Shown here: piece by piece, positions 20,701-52,509 of the stretch
Layout of the letters: the number at the start of each line of letters is the position of its first letter
Position numbering within the stretch: the first letter of the stretch is position 1
DNA from: a virus
Lineage: Duplodnaviria; Caudoviricetes
Length of the DNA stretch: 64,000 bases
Virus record (IMG/VR): IMGVR_UViG_3300025723_000013
Reading direction: 5' to 3' (one strand)
Translations under genes and position numbers: made by a program
Notes under the pieces: model-generated
Database searches by the model: none
Seen by the model: the letters and a program-made list of their open reading frames with translations, nothing else
Told to the model about the DNA's origin: nothing

Positions 20701-21866
20701 CCCAATCCCCATCCGTATCCAGCAGACGGCGGAGACATGATATTGCTCCAAATCAAGCTGCCAGTAGAACTGTATTTTGATACTATTTGCCCAGTATAAG
20801 AACCGTTGCTGCTGCTTATATAAAGATTATTATTGGAATCACAAACAATATCATAGCCGGTAAGTGGACCAAATACACTGTTATCCACTGTTCCTGTTTG
20901 CCACAGTATATTACCATATGGTCCAAATTTAGCCAGAAACTGTACCAGTCCTGCCGTTGTATCTGTTACCAAACCGGTGCAATAAACATTGCCTTGAATG
21001 TCGGTGGTTATACCATATTGGGAATACTGCGAGCTGGTAGTTGATAAATTTTGTTGCCAATACAGCGATCCGGAACTGGTGTATCGAGCTAGATACAAAG
21101 AGTTATTGCTCAACAAAGACCCAACCACATAAATGTTGCCAAAACAGTCAGTGGCAATGTCACTTATGACTGCGCCTGTTACAGTTTCAGTCTGCCATTG
21201 CAAATTACCATTGAGATCAGTGGCCACCACAAAATAGGTACCAGTGCCGGTTGATTCACTAATGGTAAAATAAAGATTGGTTTGATTGACAGTGATGGCA
21301 TCGCCGGTTTTGACATAACCATCAATGTTGTTGTAACTGTTTTGCCAAACTACCTGACCAGCAGGATTGAATTTGACGAGGTTTACTGTGCCTTGCGTTA
21401 TATCTCCGCCAACCACATAAACATTACCGTAATTGTCGTAGGTCACACTGGATGCATACACACGATCGGTATCTGTGACCAAATCACCATATTCCGTTAT
21501 CCAGTAATTGCCACTGTTGGCAGAAGAAGTCAGTGTGATATTTCCCAAGCTGTTGATAGCGCCGGGCACAGTTAATACCCCGCTGCTGCCATTGAAGATC
21601 CATGTGTTTGAGGCCGTGGTTAGATGGTTAACGGCTGTTATTTTCAGTCCAGCTGCGGTGTCATTGATGGTGGAGCCTTGAGGCAGAATCAGCTGCCCAG
21701 TGGCAGTAAGGACCACGGTGTAAGTTCCATTGGCCAATCCATAATTGAGTGTTTGACCATTCAGCGCGGCAAAATTGCTGTTGATCTTGGAAAAAGCCAA
21801 TCTAAGAACATCGCCATTGTGCGAATTTGGGCTGGTACCGGTGTTGACATATTGAAACTGAATCAT
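14703..21866 (-). CDS. Giant tail fibre/adhesin (beta-propeller, collagen-like and glycine-rich domains)
   Basis: 2387 aa; repeated D..GN.Y..G / KY.S.G.L.WQ propeller blades, GFVGS/GYTGS tract, several GALxVxGGxGIGG modules, C-terminal GGGGGGG-rich domain. Confidence 0.85.
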   Translation of the reverse strand: MIQFQYVNTGTSPNSHNGDVLRLAFSKINSNFAALNGQTLNYGLANGTYTVVLTATGQLILPQGSTINDTAAGLKITAVNHLTTASNTWIFNGSSGVLTVPGAINSLGNITLTSSANSGNYWITEYGDLVTDTDRVYASSVTYDNYGNVYVVGGDITQGTVNLVKFNPAGQVVWQNSYNNIDGYVKTGDAITVNQTNLYFTISESTGTGTYFVVATDLNGNLQWQTETVTGAVISDIATDCFGNIYVVGSLLSNNSLYLARYTSSGSLYWQQNLSTTSSQYSQYGITTDIQGNVYCTGLVTDTTAGLVQFLAKFGPYGNILWQTGTVDNSVFGPLTGYDIVCDSNNNLYISSSNGSYTGQIVSKYSSTGSLIWSNIMSPPSAGYGWGLGVDSQNNLYASGIMRAGLNTYIAVTKYSSTGSFVFSRLLGSTATNTNAVSQIPNTGPGQGHSVISVFGNSLTVVGVTRVNNTNNTSTVWKNNHYKALISQFPTDGSLIGHYGRFTYTDATLTNVVSSYASNLTVYATTLTVIVTTATLTTSTLFSSPGAFATALTVANGTGTSILSTVGSNTWQFNQNGSTQFPNYTFPATAGTPGQYLYTDGLGNLGWSNSTVNFQNINVDLLPAVDTTYNLGSPSLQWKSLYVSTNTVFIGRVPLTINTATNTISVGTGTSTQNVITSNATGTVQLPGVLAFADGSTQVTAWLGTGTLIANAVNSTYAAYATTATNIINGVSFINGTVNQVYVSANTGSVILTTPQAIATSSNVTFAGINATTVTSRLVTSTSLVVSSTSTFGGPIIFSSANITATGTNQATAAAIVGDNTYIVAGTGGVVLPVPVVGREISITNATASSIYVYPSTGTNIENSAANIPTLLPSYATMAVVAKTTSNWWTVTPVYNASTGITITQSANGTVTWALNTATLMTNAVNATTSSFATTSGYAQSFNTSTLVTNAVSAQIATTASNFNTATLVTNSVNAVNIAGGAAGSIPYQIAGGLTGFISIGSTGTLLQSNGITATWITTSSLGVLGYTGSKGTTGTNGYTGSVGFVGSIGFVGSVGYTGSVGFVGSQGTTGTIGYTGSVGFVGSIGYTGSFGYTGSVGFVGSIGFVGSVGYTGSVGFVGSQGASGTGTGYVGSIGYTGSSGSFTNPFASILTITNVTVTTSTNTGALQVTGGVGVGGGLYVGGTVTSTNHIVIGTGAAASTTTGALQVVGGAGIGGGLYVGGVITATNVYVNGYAVSTGSGSGGFASTSSLIAGTYTVTLSLSNGLLTVPNNIASSANTASIQLQSTYNGTTSSWTFSNNGTTGTITFPDSTVQSTAWNPSSAVVISSTLSSTSTITGALQVVGGVGVGGGLYVGGVITATNVYVNGYAVSTGTFNTATLVAIAVSATSITANTAITVYALTVTNTATLNGPLIFSSANITATGTNQATAALITADNTYVTTGTGGIILPTAVVGREISITNATAGSVNVYPAVGASIENSPVNTATSLPSYATLAIVAKTTSNWWTVTPVYSSSTGITITQSANGTVTWALNTASVTLQAVTGYGSSTNNAITISNTTNSTSTTTGALIVTGGHSVGSNMYVGGILNVVNYQSNTTSSQGALNVGNYVNSYTGQIATFAGSDTTYSNITLINNNSTNTAYASYEVANNGFNNYMEMGVNSTNYSYSAAGYANNSFSLPGASFLESVGSDLTIGTYNNNNVHFVLNANSSTSDILLLSTSTTAAVQILSTLTSISSTTGALTVAGGVGIGNGLYVVGTVTSTNHVINGTSATTSTTTGALTVAGGAGIGGGLVVGGVITATNVYVNGYAVSTSTGGSTFGPLTGDVTTPTAGSNTTTVTQISGGLTKFSNSLVDTYTFNNQPQITFASVSGTNVTLSSTAYPTGWSYTSGQYNVVFANPNTSSTYYKMTLTNASSTATLNYAVPGMTTATVGYLFGSAISGPSSVDNYIPVSGSSTATGANCMIWDIKSSFANVTIQGIAPPPTNSSFLVINNYSSGYTINLARISPTYGATINSGTPNGVTILAGGSAFLVYDYNQNLNGPGWILISAQNYQLSNSVSIYNTPGTYNYNWPATWNGGRVIMCGGGGGGGSGAKWSTTATVYGGNGGNSACWSMLDLGVSNSNQTTATIIVGYGGPGATQVSGVSSGTGYTGSVGGDSSFSWQGITILAAGGAGGKGGVIGGSQSTQTAATSGGNLALGLAGGTSTAIGGGTAGTGTSVANVPNSGAPYLGGAGGAGGGFVNGVGDNGGNGGVPAVYYSGSPSGASSTTAILIASGGLTTNVNSGLAYGSGGYGPNGNGTYPVVTGNTPTYIQTTYGLIGGGGGGGGGAYTSTSGTFGNQNIIGGAAGGYGAGGGGGGASRSNSTQAAGGSGPGGAGSPGIVIVITY

Positions 21867-30580: not shown

Positions 30581-30718
30581 ATGCAAATAGATTTCCATCA
30601 TGTATTGATCATTGCATTGCTGGTATTCAGTGTTCCCCTAGTTGTGATAGGCGTGATTGAATTACTGGGCTGTGTAAAGATGTTTGATAGAGAAAAACTT
30701 AAAAAAACCCCGCTGTAA
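30581..30718 (+). CDS. Small membrane protein
   Basis: 45 aa, one TM segment; ATAAATA-N5-ATG. Confidence 0.6.
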   Translation: MQIDFHHVLIIALLVFSVPLVVIGVIELLGCVKMFDREKLKKTPL

Positions 30719-30721
30719 CTA

Positions 30722-30750
30722 TTGACGCAATGCGCGTGTTCATGTAACAT
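30722..30750 (+). promoter_or_regulatory. sigma70-type promoter
   Basis: TTGACG-N17-TAACAT, directly after a variant of the CCCCGCTG motif. Confidence 0.55.
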
Positions 30751-30789
30751 GCTGTTCTTGATTTAACAGACAGAGGTTTAAACACAGCT

Positions 30790-30942
30790 ATGCGTAAATT
30801 TACAGCCCGTATCTACACTCCTGACAACTCCTGGAATCGTTATTTTGATGTGGTCATTGATGCCATTGACTATTGGGATGCAAGAACACGTCTCGAGGCA
30901 CAGTATCCAAATTTGGAATTTCGTGGGCTGTGTGAGTGCTAG
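30790..30942 (+). CDS. Small hypothetical protein MRKFTARIYTP...
   Basis: 50 aa, GAGG SD, downstream of promoter; below ORF-track cutoff. Confidence 0.65.
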   Translation: MRKFTARIYTPDNSWNRYFDVVIDAIDYWDARTRLEAQYPNLEFRGLCEC

Positions 30943-31002
30943 GCACACGCAGTAGTGGTGAAATTGAGATAAACAAAATCTTTTGTTTCGGTCATGCGGG
31001 TT

Positions 31003-31017
31003 CAAATACCCCGCTGT
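31003..31017 (+). repeat. Dispersed motif CAAATACCCCGCTGT (first exact copy)
   Basis: Exact 13-mer core also at 41521, 41964, 46164, 48165, 48702, 49226, 51128. Confidence 0.9.
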
Positions 31018-31082
31018 GTGAGACTTGCAAGGATAAGTAATTGTGTAGTCCAAACGGGCTATCCATAAAAAGGAGACGAATC

Positions 31083-31199
31083 ATGTTTAGTTTTGATTTT
31101 TTAACAGGTCTAGTGGTAGGAGCCGTGGTGGTAGTGCTGGTACCGGCTGCTTTTTCCTGGGTGGCCAAGCAGGTCACCAGCGTGAAAAAGAACCTATAG
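31083..31199 (+). CDS. 38-aa single-TM peptide MFSFDFLTGLVVGAVVVVLVPAAFSWVAKQVTSVKKNL
   Basis: AAGGAG SD, hydrophobic helix with basic tail. Confidence 0.7.
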   Translation: MFSFDFLTGLVVGAVVVVLVPAAFSWVAKQVTSVKKNL

Positions 31200-31239
31200 T
31201 ACACATTGACAGCAAACCCTGAACCAAAAGTGAAGTGAG

Positions 31240-31475
31240 CTCTAGGCCGTGTATCCTGATTGAGCAACGGCTCAACTCACCTAATGGGGAGGTATAACCT
31301 CTAGTGTTGATGGTGATCCATTGGATCTACCGGAGCTGAGCACATGATGATAGGATCATGTGTTACTCGTGCGACTAGGTTAACTGTGTGCTTGAATCAG
31401 CAAGACTGGACACGGATTATCCGTAAAAATCACAGAGGGGTACAGATGCGGGGCACCAGCACAATCTGTAACTGA
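31240..31475 (+). ncRNA. Candidate structured non-coding RNA of unknown class
   Basis: At least seven stems in ~235 nt of non-coding DNA, followed by a terminator; see findings. Confidence 0.55.
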
Positions 31476-31477
31476 AC

Positions 31478-31502
31478 AAGCAGGGGAGACCCTGCTTTTT
31501 CT
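31478..31502 (+). terminator. Intrinsic terminator
   Basis: AAGCAGGG-GAGA-CCCTGCTT followed by T-run. Confidence 0.85.
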
Positions 31503-31589
31503 TGACCTAATACCCCGCTGTGTGACATTGACATTGTGTGCGCTGATGCTATAATTGCCAGCATGACCATTAGCACCAAGGAGTATCGA

Positions 31590-32246: not shown

Positions 32247-32247
32247 C

Positions 32248-33363: not shown

Positions 33364-33375
33364 TTGGAGGATCAC

Positions 33376-33573: not shown

Positions 33574-33630
33574 GATTGACAATGCGTTGACATGTGCTAA
33601 AATCGTGGCACACTGAATAGGAGCTATCGC

Positions 33631-34059
33631 ATGAAAGAAAGAATTTTTAACATGGCCTTGGAGGCACAGACAAAATCACATGGACAGGAACCGTGGAGTT
33701 TCACAGACAGTGAGCTGGTGAATTTTGCAGTGCTGGTACGGCAGGACCTGATTAAAAATCTCTTGTTGAAAACACCCGATGTCTACTCCAACAGGTATTT
33801 TGACACCATCAAAGATACGCCTGAACCCAAATCTGCGATCACACGCATAGATCAGTTGATCCAACAGGTGAGCACTGACATCAGCGGCAAATGGATCAGC
33901 CGCGATTCAGTTCGAACTCTAGCCCAGTTGATTGTTAGGGAATGTGCCAAAATTGGAGAAGATTATGGTGATGACGGACTTTCATCTGACCCTGAAGGTA
34001 ATAGATATCCCTTGAATGCGGGCATAGCAATTAGGAAACATTTAGGAGTTGAAGAATGA
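33631..34059 (+). CDS. RI.EL..FAQLIV.EC..FGVE family protein (tandem two-unit form)
   Basis: LAQLIVRECAKI...IRKHLGVEE; promoter at 33575. Confidence 0.75.
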   Translation: MKERIFNMALEAQTKSHGQEPWSFTDSELVNFAVLVRQDLIKNLLLKTPDVYSNRYFDTIKDTPEPKSAITRIDQLIQQVSTDISGKWISRDSVRTLAQLIVRECAKIGEDYGDDGLSSDPEGNRYPLNAGIAIRKHLGVEE

Positions 34060-34202
34060 CAGACTATGAATTAGCAGAAACATTGAAAACTGCTGCCAAG
34101 AGTGCGAGAGATAACATTGCTCTTGAAATGCTGTTGTTGATGGCGGCAGAACGAATCGAACAGTTGAGTGTGGTGCAAACTCCGGGAAACTATAATGAAT
34201 GA
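34056..34202 (+). CDS. Small hypothetical protein MTDYELAE...
   Basis: 48 aa, ATGA overlap with upstream gene. Confidence 0.6.
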   Translation: MTDYELAETLKTAAKSARDNIALEMLLLMAAERIEQLSVVQTPGNYNE

Positions 34203-34428
34203 TCGAATTCGTGAACTATATGTAAAATCGATGGAGTCAACTGGCGTAGAAGGTCTAGGCGGCTCTTATCAGGAATTAAACCCTGTAAAGTTCGCCCAGT
34301 TGATTGCAAAAGATTGTGCCGATATCTGCCTTGAGATGGCAGCAAAGTGTGCTGGAATTCCTGGTGATGGTGCACTAGCAAAAGATTGTGCTTATTGGAT
34401 TAAAAAAGATTTCGGAGTTGAAGAATGA
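34195..34428 (+). CDS. MNDRIREL...FGVEE family protein
   Basis: Family N-, mid- and C-terminal blocks. Confidence 0.75.
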   Translation: MNDRIRELYVKSMESTGVEGLGGSYQELNPVKFAQLIAKDCADICLEMAAKCAGIPGDGALAKDCAYWIKKDFGVEE

Positions 34429-34769
34429 GTTTAGATGTAAATTTAATGGTTACCCAACCCGTATCGGTTTATAGTGAGAATATTACGCATAACCTTGGAG
34501 CAATGGCAAGGGAAGTAAAATTGTCAAACGGCATGACATTGTATGATGTATTGTGGCGTCCCGATGAACAAGAAGGGTTGAAGTTTGCTAAAGATATTTC
34601 AGAATTGCTAGATGAGGGCTGGAATATTCTATTATCAGACCCTGAGCATTACAAAAAGTTTAAGCCAGCTGGCGGCTGGGGAAGTTATGAAGGACTCTTA
34701 TTGTTTGTATACGAGTATAGAAACGCATGTTGGGATAATCCTGATGCAGAATTGAGAGTGTCAAGATGA
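34425..34769 (+). CDS. Conserved hypothetical phage protein
   Basis: MSLDV...NITHNLGAMA...LWRP...GWGSY; ATGA overlaps at both ends. Confidence 0.75.
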   Translation: MSLDVNLMVTQPVSVYSENITHNLGAMAREVKLSNGMTLYDVLWRPDEQEGLKFAKDISELLDEGWNILLSDPEHYKKFKPAGGWGSYEGLLLFVYEYRNACWDNPDAELRVSR

Positions 34770-35041
34770 ACGAACGAATTCGAGAACTTGCTGAACAAGC
34801 AGTCAAAGATGTTGATGTTGTCCACGAGGATAATCCCTTCAACGAAGAATTGGCTAAGATGTATATTCCGAATCTCTTTATTGAACGATTCGCCAAATTG
34901 ATTGTGTGGGAGTGTTTGAGTGAACTGCAAATCAGCAAGCGATGTGACCCATATACGGGTGAAATTTATATCAACGAATATAATCAAGCAATTGACGACC
35001 AAATAAAGATGTTAGCAGGACATTTTGGAGTTGAACAATGA
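34766..35041 (+). CDS. MNERIREL...HFGVEQ family protein
   Basis: Family blocks; 5' DNA near-identical to 50106. Confidence 0.75.
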   Translation: MNERIRELAEQAVKDVDVVHEDNPFNEELAKMYIPNLFIERFAKLIVWECLSELQISKRCDPYTGEIYINEYNQAIDDQIKMLAGHFGVEQ

Positions 35042-35280
35042 ACAAATATGATTTAAATATACATCAAAACCCAGACGCTATGGCTTGGACCAAGTTTTTC
35101 AGGGAAACTCATCCATCCTGTAACATAGATGATGATGTAATGCTTGGATGGTTCGCCAATGCTATGATGGCAATGCATGATTTTTTAATCTATAAAGACG
35201 CTCCGTTAAATGGAGATCATGCAGAATTTATGTTAACTCAGGAAAATGTGCTTTCCCGCATTAAGAGGATTGAAGAATGA
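35038..35280 (+). CDS. Hypothetical protein
   Basis: DAMAWTKFF...MLGWFANAM; ATGA overlaps. Confidence 0.7.
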   Translation: MNKYDLNIHQNPDAMAWTKFFRETHPSCNIDDDVMLGWFANAMMAMHDFLIYKDAPLNGDHAEFMLTQENVLSRIKRIEE

Positions 35281-35471
35281 GGTATTGGTTCTATAGAACA
35301 CTGATGCGATTAGCACATCGTTTCAATTGGCACCACATGAAACCTTGCTATCCAGATGGAGACACTATGCTTTGGTGTCATTGGTGTGGAATTAGGGTTG
35401 TAATAAAACAATCAAACAAAACTTTGGAGTTGAAGAATGATAATGCACCTTCACAATTGACGAACAAATAG
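35277..35471 (+). CDS. Small hypothetical protein (WHHM...CHWCG); 3' part carries out-of-frame FGVEE remnant
   Basis: 64 aa ORF; alternative frame reads IKQNFGVEE* at 35411-35440. Confidence 0.55.
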   Translation: MRYWFYRTLMRLAHRFNWHHMKPCYPDGDTMLWCHWCGIRVVIKQSNKTLELKNDNAPSQLTNK

Positions 35472-35502
35472 CCATGTTAAAAGAGCTTTTTGGAGTTGAA
35501 AA

Positions 35503-35871
35503 ATGATTAACACCATCAAAGAACTGCTGGGCCACACCTTGATCAATGTAGAGGTAAACTCAGACGGCAACGAAATCTTGTTCACCCGCGAGGATGGAAT
35601 TCGATACCGTATGTATCACAGGCAGGACTGCTGTGAGGATGTGGCCATTGAAGATGTATGTGGTGACTGGCATGATCTCATAGGCAGCCCTTTGTTAGAA
35701 GCCGAAGAAGCCACCAGTGACGATATGCTGAACTGGTTGGAACACATCACTTGGACATTCTACAAATTCGCCACCATCAAGGGCAGTGTGACCATTCGCT
35801 GGCATGGTATCAGTAACGGTTATTACAGCCAGCGGGTGGATTTTGAGTGCTTGGACGAAGTTGAATGTTGA
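35503..35871 (+). CDS. Conserved hypothetical phage protein
   Basis: MYHRQDCCEDVAIEDVCGD...WTFYKFATIKGSVTIRWHG.SNGYYS. Confidence 0.8.
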   Translation: MINTIKELLGHTLINVEVNSDGNEILFTREDGIRYRMYHRQDCCEDVAIEDVCGDWHDLIGSPLLEAEEATSDDMLNWLEHITWTFYKFATIKGSVTIRWHGISNGYYSQRVDFECLDEVEC

Positions 35872-36086
35872 ACAACATCTTAAAATGGCTTGCTACCAAG
35901 ACTCTGATCATAGGCACGTTGATCAACAGCCTGGGCTATTATCCCCTAGGACCCTTGATTCTGCTGGCCGGTGGGCTGATGTGGCTGATTGTGGCCATAC
36001 GCTGGAGAGAAGCTTCCCTCATAGTGACCAACGGCGTCATGGCTGCGATCAGCACGGCTGGACTGATCTATCACTATTATCATTGA
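35865..36086 (+). CDS. Small multi-TM membrane protein
   Basis: 73 aa, three hydrophobic segments. Confidence 0.7.
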   Translation: MLNNILKWLATKTLIIGTLINSLGYYPLGPLILLAGGLMWLIVAIRWREASLIVTNGVMAAISTAGLIYHYYH

Positions 36087-36139
36087 CTGCTGTGTTTGAT
36101 CTGCTATAATACTCACATACTAGAGCGGAGACGAACACT

Positions 36140-39737: not shown

Positions 39738-40193
39738 ATGCTGCTGCGTGAATTACTGGACCGTCCTTACCCTGTTGCCTTGGATGACCCCGACGCCGCC
39801 GACGCGGCCTATCGAGCCGTTTGGATCTGGAGATTCACCACAGATCAGGGCGATCAAGGCGAAGTCACCATAACTCGCAGTTTGATGCACAGCCGGACTT
39901 CAGTGAAATACAGCATCAACGGCAGCCGGGATAGACCCAATCGAGATCAACTCCGTCCCAACAGCATGAGAATCTTCAGCTCGGTGTTGGCCGCTCTCAG
40001 ACACTACTGGAGCCTCAACCCTGCCAATCAAACCCAGACCCTGGAATTTGTGGGCAGCCACAGCGATCCCAAAAGACTGGCGTTTTATGATCGCATGGCT
40101 CAGCAGCTGGGTCGGTGGATTCCCTACAGACTGGTGAGCACACAGGATCATCCAGACGATTACAAGAAGTATGTGTTGGCCCGGATCCGTTAG
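39738..40193 (+). CDS. Hypothetical protein (MLLRELLDRP leader); related to 52820-53233
   Basis: Shared MLLRE.[LF]DRP start and F.T.QG motif; ATAAATA box 39724-39730. Confidence 0.7.
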   Translation: MLLRELLDRPYPVALDDPDAADAAYRAVWIWRFTTDQGDQGEVTITRSLMHSRTSVKYSINGSRDRPNRDQLRPNSMRIFSSVLAALRHYWSLNPANQTQTLEFVGSHSDPKRLAFYDRMAQQLGRWIPYRLVSTQDHPDDYKKYVLARIR

Positions 40194-41413
40194 GCAGCGG
40201 AGCCTGATTGTTTTTGTTGGGCATAGGCCTGCTTGAGTGCTTGCAGCACACGACGGATACAGTCCGGTCTAGTTTGCGTTTTCTGCCATTCATCCTCCCA
40301 AATCACCACCAAGGTAAAGCCTTTCTGGCGCAGATATTCTTCTTTTTCTTGATTTAGTCGTCTACGTTCGCCTGCCGTTTTTCCAACTTTGGGTAACGGG
40401 GTGTTGTCGTCCTGGAATCGTAAGGGGTTGGCATGGTAAAGATCGCCATAATACTCCACGATCATGGGAGGATCTTCTATGAATAGATCGATTTTGTATG
40501 AATCTCCGTGACGGCCGCCAGTGGGGATTGGTACAGAGTGTTGAGGGTTCAGCGGTTGAATTTCGGGTAGCTGTGAGATTGTTTCAAAAAAATGTATTTC
40601 ACCTTGACTGCGCTGATGTACTTTTTGATTTTTTTTATAGTCTTGATGTAAAAGATCATAATCTGGCAGGTTTTTTAGGTGTCTTCTAATAGTTCCACGA
40701 TCTCGATCAATTCTTAAGCTGATATATCCAGGATTATAGCCCTGCTGATACAATTCGCGTATTTCATGATCTTGTTGCACAGTGAACGACCTTTTTTCTC
40801 GTTTTTGCCTAGCCTTAAACTGCCTATCGACAACAGCAGATACACTGGGTATTGATCTATTTTTCTCACGAGCGATCTTAGCGATGGACCAGTTATATTC
40901 GCCCTCGGGATCATAGTGACTTCGTATGAATTCTTCATCGTCGGGAGTGAACGACCTTTTTTCTTGTTTTTGCCTAGCCTTAAACTGCCTATCGACAACA
41001 TCAGATACACTGGCCGCTAATCTATTTAACACACCAGCGATCTTAGCGATGGACCAGTTATATTCGCCCTCGGGATCATAGTGACTTCGTATAAATTCTT
41101 CATCGTCGGGAGTGAACTCTTGATAGGGTCGTTTGAGTTCCTGATCAAGATAGCGATGGATCAGGACATAACTCTTTCCTAACTGTTTAGCAATGGCCGC
41201 TGCATTTAATCCCTGTTTGGCCAAGTGATTGATAAGAAAATAGTTCTTTATGGTTTGCTCGGTTGTACCAGCACCCAGTTGGTAATCGTGGATGAGATCT
41301 TGCAGTATGTGGTGATCACTGTGATGCTGAGCTCGCAGTTGGCGCATGCGTGCTCTCTGTTGAACAGTAAACCCTCGAAACGCTTCTTGAATGAATAATT
41401 CACGTAATAGCAT
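40190..41413 (-). CDS. Tandem-HTH DNA-binding protein with C-terminal Vsr/DUF559-like PD-(D/E)XK endonuclease
   Basis: Four FT......R..Y......IA..L.R HTH-like units; C-term KIDLF..VEYYGDLYH...KEEYLRQKGFTLVVIWEDEW; ATAAATA-N5-ATG. Confidence 0.8.
   Translation of the reverse strand: MLLRELFIQEAFRGFTVQQRARMRQLRAQHHSDHHILQDLIHDYQLGAGTTEQTIKNYFLINHLAKQGLNAAAIAKQLGKSYVLIHRYLDQELKRPYQEFTPDDEEFIRSHYDPEGEYNWSIAKIAGVLNRLAASVSDVVDRQFKARQKQEKRSFTPDDEEFIRSHYDPEGEYNWSIAKIAREKNRSIPSVSAVVDRQFKARQKREKRSFTVQQDHEIRELYQQGYNPGYISLRIDRDRGTIRRHLKNLPDYDLLHQDYKKNQKVHQRSQGEIHFFETISQLPEIQPLNPQHSVPIPTGGRHGDSYKIDLFIEDPPMIVEYYGDLYHANPLRFQDDNTPLPKVGKTAGERRRLNQEKEEYLRQKGFTLVVIWEDEWQKTQTRPDCIRRVLQALKQAYAQQKQSGSAA
40781..41117. 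repeat. 165-bp tandem duplication (55-aa HTH unit)
   Basis: agtgaac.. recurs at 40781, 40946, 41111 with high DNA identity. Confidence 0.9.
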
Positions 41414-41519
41414 GTGGTTATTTATTAGCGATCACGTGGTGAGTGTGCAGTGCACGGACTGCTAGTGATACACACACGAACCGGTCGCCGGATCGCGCAC
41501 GGAGCCGGTGGAAGGCGGC

Positions 41520-41578
41520 TCAAATACCCCGCTGTACGTGATGCGCACACACGCATACACACGCGCACACACGCACAA
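41520..41578. repeat. Motif plus (CA/CG)n alternating purine-pyrimidine tract 1
   Basis: TCAAATACCCCGCTGTACGTGATG followed by cgcacacacgcatacacacgcgcacacacgcac. Confidence 0.85.
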
Positions 41579-41962
41579 ACCCGCAGAGATTGAGTGTGTG
41601 CCGGTGGAGGAAACACTGCCCGTGACCAGAGTCCGTGACCCGTGACCCGTGATCGCGATTCCGGAGCAAGAAAGAATGGTCCAGAACCGGTCAAGAAGCG
41701 GTTGGCACCATTTAAACTATGCCTCACTTCCTTCACCTTGTCACGGGGTTTCTAGCCCAGATTCCCTGCCGCTTGAACTTCAGACCGTGACAGAAACCTG
41801 GAATAAAACCCCACCAAACCGTGAGGATTTTGGGCCAAAACGGTGGGGGTTTGAGACATTTCCCCACACTTTTTGAGGAATTTTGATCCATCTCAGTGTG
41901 GGGCTACCCTAGCACAGGATCCCACTACAACCACAGCCACCGGCTGGATCACAGTGGGGTTG

Positions 41963-42090
41963 TCAAATACCCCGCTGTACGTGATGTGCACACACGTACA
42001 TATACACACACTAGCGCACACACACGTACATATACACACACGCACACACACGTACATGTATACACACACGCACACACGAGCACATGCACA
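41963..42090. repeat. Motif plus (CA/TA)n tract 2, four imperfect ~27-bp units
   Basis: Same 24-nt header as 41520, then gcacacac(ac)gtacatatacacacac units. Confidence 0.85.
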
Positions 42091-42223
42091 CCGGAAGCGT
42101 TTGATCCCGGAGCATGGGCACTGTGACCTGGCGCCGTGAGTGAGCTGACATGGATATGAGCACACACACATCGAATGGACACGGCGGCATCGGGGCACAT
42201 CGAGGACTGGGCGGCGCAGGTGG

Positions 42224-42252
42224 TTGACACCTGTGGGGCAGTTGCATACACT
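42224..42252 (+). promoter_or_regulatory. sigma70-type promoter opening the early array
   Basis: TTGACA-N17-TACACT, AC-rich leader, AGGAG SD. Confidence 0.7.
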
Positions 42253-42287
42253 AGCGGCTCACTAACACACACAGGAGAACACACACC

Positions 42288-42638
42288 ATGCCCAAGACAG
42301 CGGCTTCGCGCCACCTCACTGACCAGGAGATCGCAACCATCGCGAACCAAGCCCTGGCCGCGGCTCAGGAGGCCACCCAGAATTTTCTCGACGCCAACGG
42401 TGATCGTGATCTGTGTGGATTTGCTTGGGTCACCCTCCGGCCTGCCACCACGCGCATGGCACGCTGGCTCCGGCAGCAGGGCGTGGCTCGGCCTGCACCG
42501 GGAGGCGGGGTACAGGTGTGGAATCCGGGTGGTCACCCTACCCAGTGCATCACGGCCCGGGAACAAGGCGCACGGGCCTTTGTCAAGGTCATGGAGCAAC
42601 ACGGCATCCGGGCCCTGGCCAACAGTCGATTGGACTAG
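42288..42638 (+). CDS. Conserved phage early protein
   Basis: CGFAWV...WNPGGHPTQCI...SRLD. Confidence 0.8.
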   Translation: MPKTAASRHLTDQEIATIANQALAAAQEATQNFLDANGDRDLCGFAWVTLRPATTRMARWLRQQGVARPAPGGGVQVWNPGGHPTQCITAREQGARAFVKVMEQHGIRALANSRLD

Positions 42639-42734
42639 CAGGCGATTTTTTTTTGAAAACGGGCTAGACAACGAGCCTGCATCGTGTATAATGTTCAACG
42701 TTGAGCAAGAGATGTTTTTTAACCAGCAAGGAGA

Positions 42735-42980
42735 TTGAACGTGGCCAAAGCCATTCCAGTTGATGTGACTTTTCCTGAGTCGGGCGAGACCCGCACTTTC
42801 CGCAGCATCCGTGCTGTGGCGCGCATGTTGAGCGGAACGGGCACTGAGTCGGGCGGTTTCCGCAAGACCATCAGTGCTCGTGCTGCCAACGGCTTTGTGT
42901 TGGCCCAGCCCGATGTGGTGCGCCATAACCGCTTGGCAGATGCCTGGGTGGCAGACCCAGGCTTGGAGCGAGTGGCCTAA
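42735..42980 (+). CDS. Standalone NUMOD1-like HTH protein; paralog of 47745-47942
   Basis: RTFRSIRAVARMLSG matches the F.S..eAAr.Lg pattern; TTG start with AAGGAG SD. Confidence 0.6.
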   Translation: MNVAKAIPVDVTFPESGETRTFRSIRAVARMLSGTGTESGGFRKTISARAANGFVLAQPDVVRHNRLADAWVADPGLERVA

Positions 42981-42987
42981 AGGCTCA

Positions 42988-43044
42988 GGGCAGCTGACCA
43001 CCGGGTCAGCTGCCCTTGACACTCGTGAACGCACACCGTATAAT
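42988..43044 (+). promoter_or_regulatory. 12-bp stem-loop abutting a consensus sigma70 promoter
   Basis: GGGCAGCTGACC-ACCG-GGTCAGCTGCCC then TTGACA(43016)-N17-TATAAT(43039). Confidence 0.85.
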
Positions 43045-46163: not shown

Positions 46164-46213
46164 CAAATACCCCGCTGTGTGGGGTTGACAATGCCCACAC
46201 AGCGTGGTACAAT
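46164..46213 (+). promoter_or_regulatory. Motif-fused sigma70 promoter with -35 box inside an 11-bp inverted repeat
   Basis: CGCTGTGTGGG(46173-83) G-TTGACA-ATG CCCACACAGCG(46194-204); TACAAT at 46208. Confidence 0.8.
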
Positions 46214-46281
46214 GCTGTTATCAAATCTAGCCCAGAGGAGAGCCCTAGATTATAACTAGTTGTAGTCAGGGAGAAAACACC

Positions 46282-46563
46282 ATGTATCTTGATGAAAGCA
46301 CTGTGGAAAAAATGCGTGAGCAGTTGGCGCACAGAGACGAGATCATGACCGATGCACTGCGCAAGCGCGACGCGCACCGGCTCATGGCCCAGGAGTATCG
46401 AGATCAGCTGGGTCAAGCACGGGTGCAGATCTCACAGCTGGAGGCACAGATGCAATCCCAGGCCGCGCAGCTGGATCAGCTGCGCACAGACAATCGGGAT
46501 TTGGAAGCGTTCAATCGCATGCTGCAGAAGATGATACGACGTATGGCTCACAAGGACAAATAA
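46282..46563 (+). CDS. Coiled-coil protein
   Basis: 93 aa heptad pattern, GGGAG SD. Confidence 0.7.
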   Translation: MYLDESTVEKMREQLAHRDEIMTDALRKRDAHRLMAQEYRDQLGQARVQISQLEAQMQSQAAQLDQLRTDNRDLEAFNRMLQKMIRRMAHKDK

Positions 46564-46565
46564 AC

Positions 46566-46787
46566 ATGGTCAAGCGAACAAAGATTTTACACGAAGAACT
46601 GGAGTATGTGACCGCGCAACGCAACTGGACACTGGCACAAAAAAACTTTCGCCAGCTCAAACGCCGAGAGGGTGTCACGGACGAAGATCTAGCCCTGGCC
46701 AAACAGCGCCTGGAAGTGTTCAAGTCCCGAGCACAGGAAACCAGCGCAGCGTTGACTCGCGCGGGGCTCAACAAGGGTTCTATCTAG
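46566..46787 (+). CDS. Small hypothetical protein
   Basis: 73 aa, AAGGA SD. Confidence 0.65.
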   Translation: MVKRTKILHEELEYVTAQRNWTLAQKNFRQLKRREGVTDEDLALAKQRLEVFKSRAQETSAALTRAGLNKGSI

Positions 46788-46802
46788 CCACAGGACACAC
46801 AC

Positions 46803-46970
46803 ATGATTACTAACACGTTCATGACACACGCACCCTTTGTGATCGCTGTGCTGTGTGGGATCACAGCCATCCTGGCCCTGGTGCAGGGCCACTCAGACGC
46901 AGCCGGAGCTTGGCTGTTGGCCTTTGCGGGATGGCTCACGGTGCACGTGGAGCGCTTGACACAGCACTAG
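46803..46970 (+). CDS. Small two-TM membrane protein
   Basis: 55 aa MITNTFMTHAPFVIAVLCG..., AGGA SD. Confidence 0.6.
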   Translation: MITNTFMTHAPFVIAVLCGITAILALVQGHSDAAGAWLLAFAGWLTVHVERLTQH

Positions 46971-47008
46971 ATCCTGTTATAATGCACTCACAGTCACACA
47001 CGGAGAGC

Positions 47009-47176
47009 ATGATGGACCCGGCCAACTACCTGGAAAAGAATCGCACTCGCAGCCGCAATCCAGTGGCGCGACATGCCAATCAGTTCAATCGCCCAAGCAC
47101 GCACCCTAGCAAGCAGGATCGTGCTCGCCAGCGCCGACCCAAGTATGGGTTCCAGTTTGATCGGGAGCTGGTATGA
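47009..47176 (+). CDS. Small basic protein
   Basis: RNPVARHANQFNRPSTH; promoter and GGAG SD. Confidence 0.7.
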   Translation: MMDPANYLEKNRTRSRNPVARHANQFNRPSTHPSKQDRARQRRPKYGFQFDRELV

Positions 47177-47436
47177 CACGCGGTGTGCCCGTGCTGTGGC
47201 TGCCCACTGTGGCCTTGGCGGTGCTCATGATCCTGTTGGGTGTGAACCTGGTCAGCCACGTGGCCATGGCCTCTGCTGCTGTGCCCAGCACCATCTCATG
47301 CTACTCGGGCGGTCACGAGATCTATCGAGGGCGGGGTATACAAGTGGAACGCTTGGAGAACAGCTATGTGTACTTTCAAGAAGTGGGCACAGGGCGTGAC
47401 ATTTCCATACGTGCCGACTGCATGATCACCAAATAA
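47173..47436 (+). CDS. Secreted/membrane-anchored small protein
   Basis: N-terminal TM, CYSGG.EIY...ADC; ATGA overlap. Confidence 0.7.
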   Translation: MTRGVPVLWLPTVALAVLMILLGVNLVSHVAMASAAVPSTISCYSGGHEIYRGRGIQVERLENSYVYFQEVGTGRDISIRADCMITK

Positions 47437-47507
47437 ATGGTTGACACAGCCCATAAGGGTTGTATACTACAACAGTTGACAAGGCATTTACCAAGGAGCC
47501 AATCGCA

Positions 47508-47681
47508 ATGCCACGTTTTATCAGCGACGAACATCTGATGGAAGACATCTTCACGCAGACCAATCCTATTGTGAAGTCGGACTTTTTTGATGACGCCAAC
47601 CAGTTTGATGATTGGGAGGAGGATTGGGAAGAGGACAGTGAGCAGACCTGGGCTCACATGGACGCAAACGACCAGGATTGA
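47508..47681 (+). CDS. Highly acidic small protein (possible DNA mimic)
   Basis: 19 D/E versus 2 K/R in 57 aa; AAGGAG SD. Confidence 0.7.
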   Translation: MPRFISDEHLMEDIFTQTNPIVKSDFFDDANQFDDWEEDWEEDSEQTWAHMDANDQD

Positions 47682-47744
47682 GGTTGACACAGCCTGTGCA
47701 CGAACATATACTGCACAGGCTATTTACACACTAGGGAGAACAGT

Positions 47745-47942
47745 ATGACCAGTTACAAGATCCAAGTTACTTTTCCAAACTCGGGCGAGACCCGCACTTT
47801 CCGCAGTGTGCACGCTGTGGCACGCATGCTGAGTGGCACGGGCACTGCATCGGGCGGTCTGCGCCAGCAGATCGTGCACAAGGCCAACGAAGGCTATTGG
47901 GGTCATGACAACATCGTGCGCCGCCACGCGGTAGTGGGCTAG
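47745..47942 (+). CDS. Standalone NUMOD1-like HTH protein; paralog of 42735-42980
   Basis: VTFPNSGETRTFRSVHAVARMLSGTGT.SGG shared. Confidence 0.65.
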   Translation: MTSYKIQVTFPNSGETRTFRSVHAVARMLSGTGTASGGLRQQIVHKANEGYWGHDNIVRRHAVVG

Positions 47943-47948
47943 GGCACA

Positions 47949-47980
47949 CAGGGCCTGCTGATTGGATTCAGCAGGCCCTG
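47949..47980. terminator. 13-bp perfect stem-loop after gene
   Basis: CAGGGCCTGCTGA-TTGGAT-TCAGCAGGCCCTG; weak U-tail. Confidence 0.55.
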
Positions 47981-48002
47981 AACTGTTTTGGTCACAGCAC
48001 CC

Positions 48003-48155
48003 ATGACACACACTAGACCCCAATGCGGCCGTTGCAGTCAGCTGGAGGACCGCATACAACAGCTGAGGGACGCGCTCAAGGCCATACAGGCCCACAGCCA
48101 AAGCACCCCGCAGATTCGAGAGCTGGCCACCCGATCTCTACGGGGCATCATTTAG
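48003..48155 (+). CDS. Small hypothetical protein MTHTRPQCGRC...
   Basis: 50 aa ORF, weak SD. Confidence 0.45.
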   Translation: MTHTRPQCGRCSQLEDRIQQLRDALKAIQAHSQSTPQIRELATRSLRGII

Positions 48156-48309
48156 CAACAGGCTCAAATACCCCGCTGTGTGGGGATCTCCGCTGCTGAT
48201 AAATAAAAACTACCAATACATACAAACGCACTTGCGCACTGTGCACACTGTGTTATAGTGCATGTGTGCGTCAGGTCAGCAACCGCTACCACATATAGGA
48301 GCATAGCCC

Positions 48310-48594
48310 ATGCTAGAAGAAATCAGTACCGAATACGATCCGGAACTAGACGCCCACATCACAAAATATGCCTGCAGCTTTTTGGCCAGCTGCGAGGACC
48401 AAATGGTCAAAGTGACCGGCATCACAGTATGCGACGGCGGCGACTTTGAGGTCATTTGGGTAAAACACAACGGTGACCTGTTGTACCACGACCGTGAGTT
48501 TGAGCATGCTATCAGTCACGCTTTGGGTTATCGTGTACAGTTTACCGAACAAGGCATGCAGGCGCCTAAATCGGCCTGCCTGGAACGAATTTAA
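48310..48594 (+). CDS. Conserved hypothetical phage protein
   Basis: LLYHDREFE..IS..LG..V.FTEQGMQ; AGGAG SD. Confidence 0.75.
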   Translation: MLEEISTEYDPELDAHITKYACSFLASCEDQMVKVTGITVCDGGDFEVIWVKHNGDLLYHDREFEHAISHALGYRVQFTEQGMQAPKSACLERI

Positions 48595-48888
48595 CACAGC
48601 CCAGCGCCGCCTGCACAGCGGCGCTGTTTGGACGCCGCTGCTGCCTCATGGTGTGTGCTGGTCAGCAGTTGAAATCGCAGTGGGGCAGTGTGCTAGATCC
48701 CCAAATACCCCGCTGTGTGGGTTTATATCCGCCCCACTGTTGCAATCTTAAACGTGTGTTTTGATCACGTGGGGCAGCTCCCACTGTTGCCACAAAGCTT
48801 ATAGGAATTTTTGGTGGGATCCGGTTGACAACTCCAGCACCGGCACGCATACTACACACACTGCAAACCAGCAGTGACAGGAGCACAC

Positions 48889-49125
48889 ATGGAACACGTC
48901 AACATTGACTGCTATTTGGAATCACCTGCAAGCACACCCGATCTGGAAGAAGCCTGGGATCTGGACGCACAGTATCCAGGCGAGGATCAGGAGGAATGGG
49001 GCGACTACGAGGACGACAGCGACCGTGAGAATCAGCCCACCGAATACGAGGAGTGGCAGGCCGTGAGTGGCGGCGACGACAACTGGTACGACAACGCAAT
49101 GGAAATCGGCGACCTGGACTACTAG
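48889..49125 (+). CDS. Highly acidic small protein (possible DNA mimic)
   Basis: 27 D/E versus 1 R in 78 aa; own promoter (48825) and AGGAG SD. Confidence 0.75.
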   Translation: MEHVNIDCYLESPASTPDLEEAWDLDAQYPGEDQEEWGDYEDDSDRENQPTEYEEWQAVSGGDDNWYDNAMEIGDLDY

Positions 49126-49133
49126 ACCTCTCC

Positions 49134-49163
49134 AGGGCCTGTTTTGGCAACAGGCCCTTTTTT
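49134..49163 (+). terminator. Intrinsic terminator
   Basis: AGGGCCTGTT-TTGGC-AACAGGCCCT-TTTTT. Confidence 0.85.
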
Positions 49164-49469
49164 AGTGGCCCGCATTTCCCACCAGCACAATCACAGCAGC
49201 AGATGGCAGCAGTGGGGCCGCTGCCCAAATACCCCGCTATCACTATCTCTAAAAATATCTCGCAGTGGCTGGTCGGTACCGCTGTTCCCTGAACCCTGCG
49301 TGTGCATTCAAAAACGCAGCACGTGGGGCGGACACTGCGGCCGTGAACAGCTGGTGCAGTTCCCACAGTGCCGCATGCGAACCCGGCCAGCAGCAGTGGG
49401 GAGGATTAAATAACAGTTGACAGAGGGCGGCTGAACTAGTAAACTGGCTGCACTTAGAGGAGACACACA

Positions 49470-49808
49470 GTGATTGAAACAGTGATCGATTTGATTCCGT
49501 TTGTATTGGTCATGATGAGCGCGGCACAGTTGGTGGTGGTCATGTTGGTGCACAGTGATCTTAAAAACTTATTTGTTAACCTGACTCAACGCCTGGACAG
49601 CTTGAAAGACTCAGAACTTACCATTTCGCAGGGCAACAGCAGCCCAGCGCCCACCACTTTTGCGCATGCGCCCACCACAGCACCCGGTGCGGGCACAGGC
49701 TCTCAAAGTGCAGGCGTGGTTGACCGCCACCCACCCGCACAGACCGCTGGAATCTATGAGGTCAGCGATGCGCAAGTGATCGCAGCGTTGCGAGAGCTGG
49801 ACAAGTAA
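49470..49808 (+). CDS. Membrane-anchored hypothetical protein
   Basis: GTG start, GAGGAG SD, promoter TTGACA-N17-TAAACT at 49416. Confidence 0.65.
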   Translation: MIETVIDLIPFVLVMMSAAQLVVVMLVHSDLKNLFVNLTQRLDSLKDSELTISQGNSSPAPTTFAHAPTTAPGAGTGSQSAGVVDRHPPAQTAGIYEVSDAQVIAALRELDK

Positions 49809-49881
49809 TTGCCGGCGGGGTGCAACGCCCTAGCCCCACCAGGCCGTATACAACCCTAGCTACAATCTGTGGGGTTGAGTT

Positions 49882-49927
49882 GGGCCCCAATGCGCTGTAT
49901 TAAAAGAATATAAATGCAGCGGTGGGG
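49882..49927. repeat. 46-bp dispersed direct repeat, copy 1 (copy 2 at 52506-52551)
   Basis: gggccccaatgcgct(g/c)tattaaaa(g/a)aat(a/c)taaatgcagcggtgggg, 43/46 identical. Confidence 0.9.
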
Positions 49928-50105
49928 TGCAACGACGCAGCCCCACGCAGTGGCCAGTGCAGCTGACCTCGATCCGAGTGTGACTCAGCAGCGCTGGACA
50001 AAAAACACTTGCAAAATACACACACTGTGTTAAATTTGCAGCTGTAGCAATCGGCCAGTGGCTCTGGAGATTGTGCCCAATCAATTAAACACTTGGAGTT
50101 GCAGC

Positions 50106-50324
50106 ATGAACGAACGAATTCGAGAACTGGCTCAACAAGCTGCTGATGGTATGCTTTCTTATGATGCTGAAGGTGAATGGCGTCTTAATCAAAAGGAAGC
50201 GGAAAAGTTCGCCCAGTTGATTGTGAGAGAATGTGTTATAATTGTGGCAGATGCCGTTGACCATCGCGAACCCGCCATCACTTATGCGAGCAAGATTAAA
50301 CAACATTTTGGAGTTGAACAATGA
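50106..50324 (+). CDS. MNERIREL...HFGVEQ family protein
   Basis: Family blocks; GGAG SD. Confidence 0.75.
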   Translation: MNERIRELAQQAADGMLSYDAEGEWRLNQKEAEKFAQLIVRECVIIVADAVDHREPAITYASKIKQHFGVEQ

Positions 50325-50938
50325 CTGAGGAGAAAGCACAAGTGAAAACTGTGATTTGCACTAGTCTTAACAAGATTCGCGCGCGCGTTCCATGCGAGAA
50401 AGGGTGGAAAAAACTACTCGATCATTTGGGTAAAACTAAAGCGGACGATGAACCATTACCGTTTTCCGTAATTGTCGAATCAAACGGACTTGACGACGCG
50501 TTGTGGGCGTGTAGAACAACGCCAGAATATGACCACGAGTGGCGTTTGTTTGCAGTTTGGTGCGCACGACAAGTACAACATTTGATGACTTACCATCAAT
50601 CGGTCGATGCGTTAGATGTCGCATACCGACACGCGAACGGACAAGCAACCAATGAGGAGCTACACGCTGCGCAAAATGCGGCGAAAGATGCAGCGAGAGA
50701 TGCAGCGAGAGATGCGTATCACAAGTCAGTACAGGATGCGGCGTGGGCTGCGGCGTGGGCTGCGGCGAGGGCTGCGCGGTATGCGGCGTCGGCTGTGGCG
50801 GAGTATGCGGGGTGGGCCGCGCGAAATGCGGCGGGGGGTGTGGCGGAGTATGCGGGGTGGGTTGCGTGGGCTGCGGCGAAAGACGCTCAAACACAAAAAT
50901 TTCTGGATGTGGTGTCAAGTGCGCGGGGGGAGAAATGA
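50321..50938 (+). CDS. Phage protein with AAW/AAR alanine-rich repeats
   Basis: PCEKGWKKLL, NGLDDALW, RLFAVWCARQVQHL, AAWAAA repeats. Confidence 0.8.
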   Translation: MTEEKAQVKTVICTSLNKIRARVPCEKGWKKLLDHLGKTKADDEPLPFSVIVESNGLDDALWACRTTPEYDHEWRLFAVWCARQVQHLMTYHQSVDALDVAYRHANGQATNEELHAAQNAAKDAARDAARDAYHKSVQDAAWAAAWAAARAARYAASAVAEYAGWAARNAAGGVAEYAGWVAWAAAKDAQTQKFLDVVSSARGEK

Positions 50939-51063
50939 AACCGCACATGTACGTCTATGTAAACAACCGATTGATCACAGTGGAATCCTGCCTGGAGTTT
51001 GCCATGCCCTATTGGGCTAAACGCAAACAGACCAATAAACGGATCACTTGGAAGTTCCGATAG
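50935..51063 (+). CDS. Small hypothetical protein
   Basis: 42 aa MKPHMYVYVNNRL...AMPYW; ATGA overlap. Confidence 0.6.
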   Translation: MKPHMYVYVNNRLITVESCLEFAMPYWAKRKQTNKRITWKFR

Positions 51064-51147
51064 CGCTGGTACACCCGGGCCAGCGCAGCTGGATCTCGCC
51101 GGGCACACGCGCAACCAGTGTGGGGATCAAATACCCCGCTGCGCTCC

Positions 51148-51286
51148 CACTGCTGGGTGCACGCCGCTAACTTGCGCAATAGGGCTGTGTGCTGTGATCT
51201 CACTGCTGGGTGCACACCGCTGCTGTGTACGCCAAGCGCTGACAAGCTGTGTGCTAAATCTGCTGCGTTCCCACTGCTGGGTGCAC
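51148..51286. repeat. Three copies of 15-mer CACTGCTGGGTGCAC
   Basis: 51148-62, 51201-15, 51272-86. Confidence 0.9.
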
Positions 51287-51321
51287 GATTGCTAGATCGC
51301 GTGGCAGGGATCGCCGTGAAC

Positions 51322-51349
51322 AAAAAAAAAGCGCCGTGATCACGGCGCT
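51322..51349 (-). terminator. Intrinsic terminator (minus strand)
   Basis: Palindrome AGCGCCGT-GATC-ACGGCGCT preceded by A9 on plus strand. Confidence 0.8.
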
Positions 51350-51384
51350 CAACGTAGCGGCTCGAGGCCACTGGCCCCTGGGCG

Positions 51385-51585
51385 TCAGCTGCCCTCCACC
51401 GTGCGCTGCCAGCGCGGACGGCTCTCAATCATGTTCAACACTGCCTGTCGCAGCGCATCCAGATCATGCACAGGACCCTCAATGCGATCCAGCTCTGCAC
51501 CGCCCTGATGTATGCGGCCCGAAATCAACCACTGCATGGTGTTGTGGCTCACTGCTTGATCTTGGAAACGTATCTGTCTGCTCAT
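51385..51585 (-). CDS. Small hypothetical protein
   Basis: AAGGAG SD, TTGCAC-N17-CATAAT promoter (51646-51618) and downstream terminator. Confidence 0.7.
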   Translation of the reverse strand: MSRQIRFQDQAVSHNTMQWLISGRIHQGGAELDRIEGPVHDLDALRQAVLNMIESRPRWQRTVEGS

Positions 51586-51814
51586 CGCTACTGCTCCTTG
51601 CTGTTGCTGGAATCTGTATTATGCACAACCCGCCGGCCCTGTGCAACCTCTCGTGTGTCGAGTTGTGTTAAGTTGTGTCGAGTTTCCCACCCGCACCTCG
51701 CGTGTGCTGCGTTCCCACTGGCCCTGTTTCCCACTCGCGCTGCTGTTGCACAGTTTCCCAAGGGCTCTCGCAGGGCCGGTGTGCGCCGTGTGCGACGGCT
51801 TTTTTCATTGTGTT

Positions 51815-51843
51815 AGTATAGCATCAGTCCCACCCGATGTCAA
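51815..51843 (-). promoter_or_regulatory. Near-consensus sigma70 promoter (minus strand)
   Basis: TTGACA-N17-TATACT, ATG 6 nt downstream. Confidence 0.75.
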
Positions 51844-52060
51844 CTCTGCGTGCACACTTTATGCGGGGTTGCAGAGCCCCGGCTGCGGCGTCTGCGCTTG
51901 CGCACGCAGTTTTGTAAAGCGCGTGGGAGTTAGTCAAGCAGTCCAGCTCACAGCTGCGCACACGCACTGCGGGCCTGCCCGGCACTGGCGCAGTGGGATC
52001 CGGTTGACAGCCGGTCTGCGCGAGTGCATACTGCATGCACACTCGCGCAAGGAGACCAAC

Positions 52061-52147
52061 ATGTGCTCGTTATTGACTTATCTAGTGATCAGCTGTGTGA
52101 CCGCACTCGTAGTGGCACAAGTGATCCACTGGGGCAACGGAGACTAG
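52061..52147 (+). CDS. 28-aa hydrophobic peptide
   Basis: TTGACA(52004)-N17-CATACT promoter, AAGGAG SD. Confidence 0.55.
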   Translation: MCSLLTYLVISCVTALVVAQVIHWGNGD

Positions 52148-52305
52148 CAGCCCACCCGGCTGTGTGCGCACACCCGGCCCCCGGGTGTGCGGCCGCTGTG
52201 CCGGCTGACCCCCACTGCTGTGCACTAGCACAGCTAACGCCTGCGGTGGGGCCGCTGTATTAAACCCCTGCTGCGATTGCGTAACTGCGAGATTTCTGCA
52301 CTGGA

Positions 52306-52509
52306 CCCCCGCTGCTGCTGCGTTAAGCTGTTGTATTCCTGCACCGGGGCCCCAGCTGTTATTGCGCTAGCACATCAATTCCTGCACCGGGGCTGTGTGT
52401 GCCGGGCCCCCGCTGCTGCTGCGTTAAGCTGTTGTATTCCTGCACCGGGGCTGTGTGTGCCGGGCCCCCGCTGCTGCTGCGTTAAGCTGTTGTATTCCTG
52501 CACCGGGGC
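52306..52509. repeat. Three copies of a 45-bp GC-rich unit (58-bp period for last two)
   Basis: cccccgctgctgctgcgttaagctgttgtattcctgcaccggggc at 52306, 52407, 52465. Confidence 0.9.

Follow-up and report, generated by a model that had tools for sequence, protein, structure and literature searches.

A conserved composite DNA site heading the early genes of an uncultured jumbo-phage clade

Chromosome ends in the nearest described phages

Long direct terminal repeats (DTRs) are the rule among the cultured phages nearest to the jumbo phage considered here. Reported repeats measure 39 kb in PA5oct (PMC7318152), 22.5 kb in CBB (PMC5259590), 32 kb in XaC1 and 17.6 kb in XbC2 (PMC11273794), and 20.7 kb in Sharanji (PMC11895373); XacN1 is also among the phages with a reported long DTR (PMC7318152, PMC5259590, PMC11273794, PMC11895373). 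In the literature, we found no defined sequence signal for end choice or replication start in long-DTR jumbo phages. The closest known system to our locus is the long-DTR left end of the Rak2-like phages with T5-type ends, namely Pectobacterium phage CBB, Serratia phage BF and Xanthomonas phage XaC1. The left end of CBB and XaC1, and that of BF as placed by record-junction homology, falls where minus-strand genes and plus-strand early genes are separated by non-coding DNA, at a distance of 318-460 nt from the start of the last minus-strand gene. The CBB and BF left junctions read CCCC-N2-3-CCGCTA followed by TAT (L198:5911-5930; L205 end/L206 start). At XaC1, the junction reads GCTGCTA and then AGA, and CGCT immediately precedes the right end of CBB as well. 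These junction words may reflect a terminase cut preference in Rak2-like phages. The ends of PA5oct and XacN1 lie outside any divergent zone.

The locus described below lies in a 64,000-nt stretch of viral DNA (IMG/VR record IMGVR_UViG_3300025723_000013; Duplodnaviria, Caudoviricetes), hereafter the window. The window comes from an uncultured jumbo phage. Among cultured phages, the closest to it are Atu_ph07, PA5oct and the Rak2-like phages, with helicases 38-51% identical. As at the Rak2-like ends, a non-coding zone of ∼1-2 kb separates leftward genes from small sigma70-driven early genes, and the two groups of phages have related replication proteins. The word CCGCT, which stands right ahead of the cut in CBB and BF, also occurs in the polar box of our locus, a likeness noticed post hoc and drawn from two phages that are not independent. 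Set against these ends, the core and polar boxes of our locus are without a detectable match, and its clade is known from sequence rather than from mapped termini. A core profile search at the CBB, BF, XaC1, PA5oct and XacN1 junctions found no homologue, neither core nor polar boxes were detectable in the cultured relatives, and blastn of the zone, the core and one relative's zone against cultured phages returned chance matches only. PA5oct has a divergent non-coding zone with ncRNA004 (L099:6117-6735) ∼2 kb upstream of the same AAA ATPase gene that neighbours our locus. Considered as a counterpart, this zone was set aside: it is homologous, but is without box or core and lies ∼40 kb from the PA5oct DTR.

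Anatomy of the zone and its single-copy core

The zone is a conserved, apparently undescribed composite cis-acting DNA site of a large clade of uncultured jumbo phages, for which anatomy, conservation, single-copy state, strand polarity, early-region position and the lack of a conserved ORF or RNA fold were observed directly (Table 1). Its most conserved part is a 21-nt core between two purine-pyrimidine tracts. A sequence-only reading of the window had overlooked the core and caught the most striking but least conserved part of the site. The core emerged as a second motif, once per locus, when the box clusters of relatives were aligned. Some 70 IMG/VR contigs carry it, and all five records of 149-356 kb (one 96% complete) hold exactly one copy. 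Scanning with the core alone returned 78 loci; a box lies within 1 kb in 69 of them, and the boxes number 205 on the same strand and 0 on the opposite strand. Many core and box loci are close relatives, so these counts overstate independence. The left arm of the core is G-skewed in relatives and is often built of tandem units of 10-11 nt. In 60 distinct contexts compared, the sequence directly left of the core has a strongly positive GC skew and that directly right of it a negative one. The zone is non-coding and heads the early genes, as in CBB, BF and XaC1; the exception is a 327-kb record (G013) in which early promoters flank the core on both sides. In several relatives (L094, L095, L016, L137), GCGAAGC words occur ∼0.4-1 kb left of the core; they are absent from the window zone. 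GCGAAGC forms a very stable DNA mini-hairpin.

Table 1. Elements of the composite site and related boxes in the window
Feature	Position	Strand	Remarks
Box inside long minus-strand ORF	21578..21585	+	may be chance
Three further boxes	30708, 31009, 31513 (span 30708..31520)	+	
Late-type TAAATA box of leftward nuclease gene	41419..41424	-	left limit of zone
Header copy 1	41520..41543	+	polar box CCCCGCTG inside at 41527-41534, 180 nt left of core
Alternating tract 1	41541..41577	+	37 nt, CA/CG-rich, begins 6 nt past box
CGTGACC x3	41621..41647 (starts 41621, 41634, 41641)	+	private to window genome
Core left arm	41667..41706	+	purine/G-rich
Conserved core ACCATTTAAACTATGCCTCAC	41707..41727	+	single-copy; clade consensus ACCATTTGAGCATAGCCTCTC
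C-rich tail	41728..41737	+	CCAC-like in relatives
Inverted repeat around TTTTGG-G-CCAAAA	41805..41852	.	arms 41806-41815 / 41842-41852; TTTTGG-G-CCAAAA at 41828; not found in relatives
Second inverted repeat CCCCACAC/GTGTGGGG	41862..41903	.	
Header copy 2	41963..41986	+	box at 41970-41977, 263 nt right of core
Alternating tract 2	41984..42091	+	perfect runs 28 + 65 nt; local tandem expansion
First sigma70-type promoter of early island	42224..42252	+	right limit of zone
Seven further boxes, early island	46170, 48171, 48708, 51134, 52307, 52408, 52466 (46170..52473)	+	

The smaller elements that the sequence-only reading had listed, three CGTGACC words, inverted repeats and the TTTTGG-G-CCAAAA palindrome, are all present where it placed them. 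Its view that the zone lacks a credible ORF also holds, as ORFs within 41425-42223 have no homologue in 3.3 Mb of related loci; the overlapping ORFs (41949-43034 on the minus strand, and shorter ones) were rejected, having no homologues except antisense to a real gene. Rfam gave no match above the gathering score in the zone, and RNAalifold on the plus strand of 28 core regions gave zero consensus pairs, so that a DNA site is the simpler reading. Gene orientation does diverge here, with a single minus-strand nuclease gene (40190-41413) pointing away from the plus-strand early genes, but the divergence is only local, and plus-strand genes return further to the left. The nuclease, a protein with four HTH domains and a Vsr/homing-type domain, carries a recent 165-bp internal duplication. 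It has no homologue in any related locus retrieved and is therefore unlikely to be the cognate factor of the site.

Polar boxes and the alternating runs behind them

The 24-nt header is duplicated exactly, as had been claimed, with no third copy at three or fewer mismatches in the window and a chance expectation of 0 in 100 shuffles. Header and tract were duplicated together as a unit of 71 nt with 79% identity. The exact header 21-mer found no match in IMG/VR, and the exact header found one chance match, in coding sequence, in metagenomes. The 24-mer is not the conserved unit it had been taken for: what recurs is R-CCCCGCTG-Y, an 8-nt box whose outer flanks are genome-specific. In the second header, the box doubles as the 3′ arm of a 10-bp inverted repeat (41951-41978). 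A literature search for the octamer in phages found nothing relevant among the papers listed. Consensus sequences for dif, matS, sigma54, the Mot box and rolling-circle nicking were also considered, and by eye none of them fits. Three boxes lie in a 58-nt tandem repeat at 52277-52510, close to the right edge of the early island.

The box is polar. In the window, it occurs 13 times, each time on the plus strand (13:0). In 80 loci retrieved via the neighbouring AAA ATPase gene, 56 boxes lie on the same strand and 2 on the opposite strand, and further relatives give 32:0. Whole records hold 3-7 boxes each, nearly all on one strand and grouped around the early region; part of the wider clade lacks the box. 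In a 356-kb record, all three boxes sit at the core and none of the 46 minus-strand sigma70 promoters has one, and polarity thus tracks the chromosome, not transcription. Polarity tied to the chromosome in this way suggests that something directional is at work, be it packaging, nicking, helicase loading or injection.

The alternating tracts had been described as ∼35 and ∼105 nt long, and the measured lengths agree: perfect purine-pyrimidine runs of 37 nt in tract 1 and of 28 nt (41984-42011) and 65 nt (42014-42078) in tract 2, compared with a maximum of 22 in 100 dinucleotide Markov simulations of the window. Tract 2 likewise resolves into four units (32, 26, 28 and 20 nt), close to the four ∼27-bp units reported. 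The label 'Eukaryote-style CA microsatellite' was an overstatement. A long pure (CA)n run was sought in the tracts and none was found, the maximum being 9 nt; CG, TA and AT steps are mixed with CA, and the tracts are therefore not microsatellites in the eukaryotic sense. They share long purine-pyrimidine alternation and slippage-type units with eukaryotic (CA)n microsatellites and Z-DNA tracts, but differ in their mixed steps and in being anchored a few nucleotides behind a conserved box.

In relatives, runs of at least 12 nt occur within 50 nt after the box in 37 of 149 cases and before it in 13, as against 2% of random stretches, in loci that were chosen around these sites and include many close kin. 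Related DNA amounting to 3.3 Mb contains 13 distinct runs of at least 20 nt. For 10 of them, the midpoint falls no more than 100 nt downstream of a box, such stretches accounting for 1% of the sequence; six begin exactly 8 nt past the box (6 nt in the window). Most relatives' runs face as TG, those of the window genome and two others as CA. This suggests, on sequence comparison, that alternation may matter more than its sequence. The longest run in relatives is at most 32 nt, which makes the tract length in the window a local expansion; the lengths of 37 and 108 nt are probably slippage expansions of a run that measures 12-30 nt in relatives.

It is very improbable that the tracts simply reflect neutral slippage, or that assembly joined DNA of a eukaryote to that of the phage. 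The tract length is indeed unique to the window genome and made of tandem units, and Rfam reports weak matches, far under cut-off, to (CA/TG)-rich mammalian miRNA models. Against this, the box, the core and the alternating runs linked to the box are shared by relatives from many samples, and the flanking genes are bona fide phage genes. The module's presence in relatives settles the chimera question that the sequence-only reading had raised: the module is no chimera. Neutral slippage is contradicted for the site as a whole and still likely for the extra tract length. On comparison with relatives, the proposal of a protein site joined to structure-prone DNA is supported: the octamer is conserved and strand-polar across a clade, and nearly all long runs in relatives lie a short way downstream of it. 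The earlier interpretation as a whole is supported in part; the conserved unit is not the 24-mer, and the tract length is private. Alternation rich in CG and CA behind divergent promoters makes Z-DNA plausible, and its formation by these tracts is accordingly plausible. A stronger proposal, that a phage end or origin signal couples the polar octamer to alternation conserved as Z-DNA-prone or kinkable structure needed for cutting or initiation, seems rather doubtful. If the runs do act through shape, such selection for Z-prone DNA would be unusual among bacterial viruses.

A possible packaging start, origin or early control site

Our leading reading, held tentatively, is that the site marks the left end of a long DTR or a packaging start; we favour packaging or a terminus only moderately over an origin or an injection pause. 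Under this reading, the site would consist of the single-copy core, a G-rich left and a C-rich right flank, and same-strand boxes, many of them trailed by an alternating run. A phage protein, perhaps the terminase small subunit or a partner, would recognize the core together with its flank, phased at roughly 10 bp, and the polar boxes would orient the protein complex or be nicked on one strand. Flexible, Z-prone runs could ease bending or opening under negative supercoils from two divergent promoters. Cutting within the zone, or immediately to its left, would make the sigma70 early island the first part of the chromosome to enter the cell. The core and its oriented boxes offer an exact target for read mapping, protein pull-down and the re-orienting of metagenomic genomes.

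The left-end positions in CBB, XaC1 and BF, the long DTRs of the nearest cultured phages and the presence of a second conserved site closing the early island speak for the terminus reading. The ends of PA5oct and XacN1, the failure to detect core or polar boxes in cultured relatives and the two-sided early promoters of the 327-kb record speak against it. Contig starts also bear on a terminus near the core. Of the 72 contigs that carry the core, 11 begin no more than 120 nt upstream of it, where 0.76 would be expected, and 28 begin no more than 1.2 kb upstream; downstream ends number 3 and 5 over the same distances. The starts near the core are scattered over -29 to -132, with no single base preferred. 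A second conserved site, which closes the early island on the right, served as a control: 7 of 120 contigs start within 120 nt upstream of it, with 0.92 expected. With the control showing a like excess of starts, the cause may be G-rich repeats or a mixture of strains, and contig starts are weak evidence. The early island alone as the repeated segment was rejected, since it predicted contig ends just downstream of the right-edge site and the opposite was seen.

A replication origin, with the boxes as iterons for an initiator or helicase loader, the core as loading or nicking site and the runs opening under supercoils, is possible though unlikely. A single-copy core with polar direct repeats would suit it, as would primase and helicase genes 18-20 kb away. 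In DTR phages, origin and left end can coincide, as in T7. The sharp G-to-C flip in skew across the core also speaks for an origin, and the GC skew to which the sequence-only reading had pointed does change sign there. On the genome scale, skew is uninformative: in the 356-kb relative, the cumulative curve tracks gene strand and reaches its lowest point ∼12-22 kb upstream of the core. Lambda ori and the P1 and SPP1 pac sites are well-known iteron-type phage origins and pac sites. Our site resembles them in being unique and in having direct repeats and helically phased flanks; it differs in that its repeats are irregularly spaced and scattered over 20-30 kb, some far from the site, and in having no adjacent terminase gene. 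Regularly phased iterons, an AT-rich unwinding element and a linked initiator gene were looked for at the site and not found: the 2-kb bin is 55% GC, and no neighbouring initiator gene is conserved.

A third possibility is that the box binds a host or phage factor acting on sigma70 early promoters and that the core is a late/early control site where no cutting occurs. Boxes 31513 and 46170 each end 7 nt ahead of a TTGACA promoter, and 45 of 196 dereplicated boxes end 7-38 nt ahead of a sigma70 -35 hexamer. The gaps cluster at 7-9, 18-20, 28-29 and 36-38 nt (Rayleigh R 0.49 at 10.5 bp; 0.37 minus the first cluster), and such helical phasing suggests a protein on one helical face, though the gap data are not independent. 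The ACACACAC words of the window, which are confined to the plus strand and frequent in the leaders of early genes, would also fit. Yet no promoter follows three quarters of the boxes, both header boxes or any of the three in the 356-kb record; minus-strand sigma70 promoters go without boxes, and most sigma70 promoters in the 356-kb record face the other way. We consider a control site of this kind distinctly unlikely as the whole account; a transcription role may be real but secondary. Between 32691 and 50025, 19 of 19 ACACACAC words are on the plus strand, outside the tracts mostly between the -10 box and the ribosome-binding site, a habit shared by relatives.

Two further readings concern the box itself. 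It could be a strand-specific nick motif of virion DNA, as in T5, phiKMV, tf and Rembedalsseter, which would be compatible with the packaging-start reading but could also hold independently. Like the motifs of T5, phiKMV-like and tf/LUZ24-like phages, it is short, confined to one strand, present in ∼3-13 copies and regionally clustered. The 14 nick sites of tf and 13 of Rembedalsseter are same-strand and clustered (PMC3517423, PMC11780129), and our boxes, too, are concentrated in one genome part. The bottom strand, AGCGGGGY, fits the T5 consensus R/GCGCRGG at 6 of 8 positions. The nicks here are putative, however, and the box differs in sequence and is tied to a single-copy core and alternating runs; it is also intergenic, unlike tf-group motifs, most of which fall within coding sequence (PMC11780129). 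The boxes are not where contigs end, and the core is left unexplained. We regard a nick motif alone as quite improbable. The box could instead be a Chi-like signal taming host AddAB/RecBCD entering from a left DNA end. Its bottom strand holds AGCGG, the B. subtilis Chi, oriented for an enzyme entering from the left, and in P1, Chi is concentrated near the ends (10.1101/2021.07.08.451572). Conserved flanks, promoter phasing and trailing alternating runs would be unexpected of such a signal, the core is again unexplained, and the box is not among the inferred Proteobacteria Chi motifs, which were searched only near the E. coli motif (PMC8022716). A Chi role is very unlikely.

The early region holds several further features. 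The right-edge site reads, in relatives, AAATCACC ... AAGTACT-N5-8-AATTTTTT-RCGCG-N2-AATTTTTT ... GACCCATTTCGG; the window copy (52655-52800) is diverged and without AAGTACT. It has at least 120 IMG/VR matches, lies 9.6-17 kb right of the core and also occurs in phages without box or core. A 335-kb contig (L331) binned with a Neomarinimicrobiota MAG has both the AAA gene and the right-edge site; it is probably a misbinned jumbo phage. A search for the host of the clade yielded misbinned contigs only. Two paralogous small genes of the early island (42735-42980 and 47745-47942) share 102 nt at 82% identity, 5 kb apart. Left of the core, a second sigma70 promoter cluster with three boxes occupies 30500-36100; it holds five copies of the gene-junction word TTTTGGAGTTGAAGAATGA, and a sixth lies at 50306.
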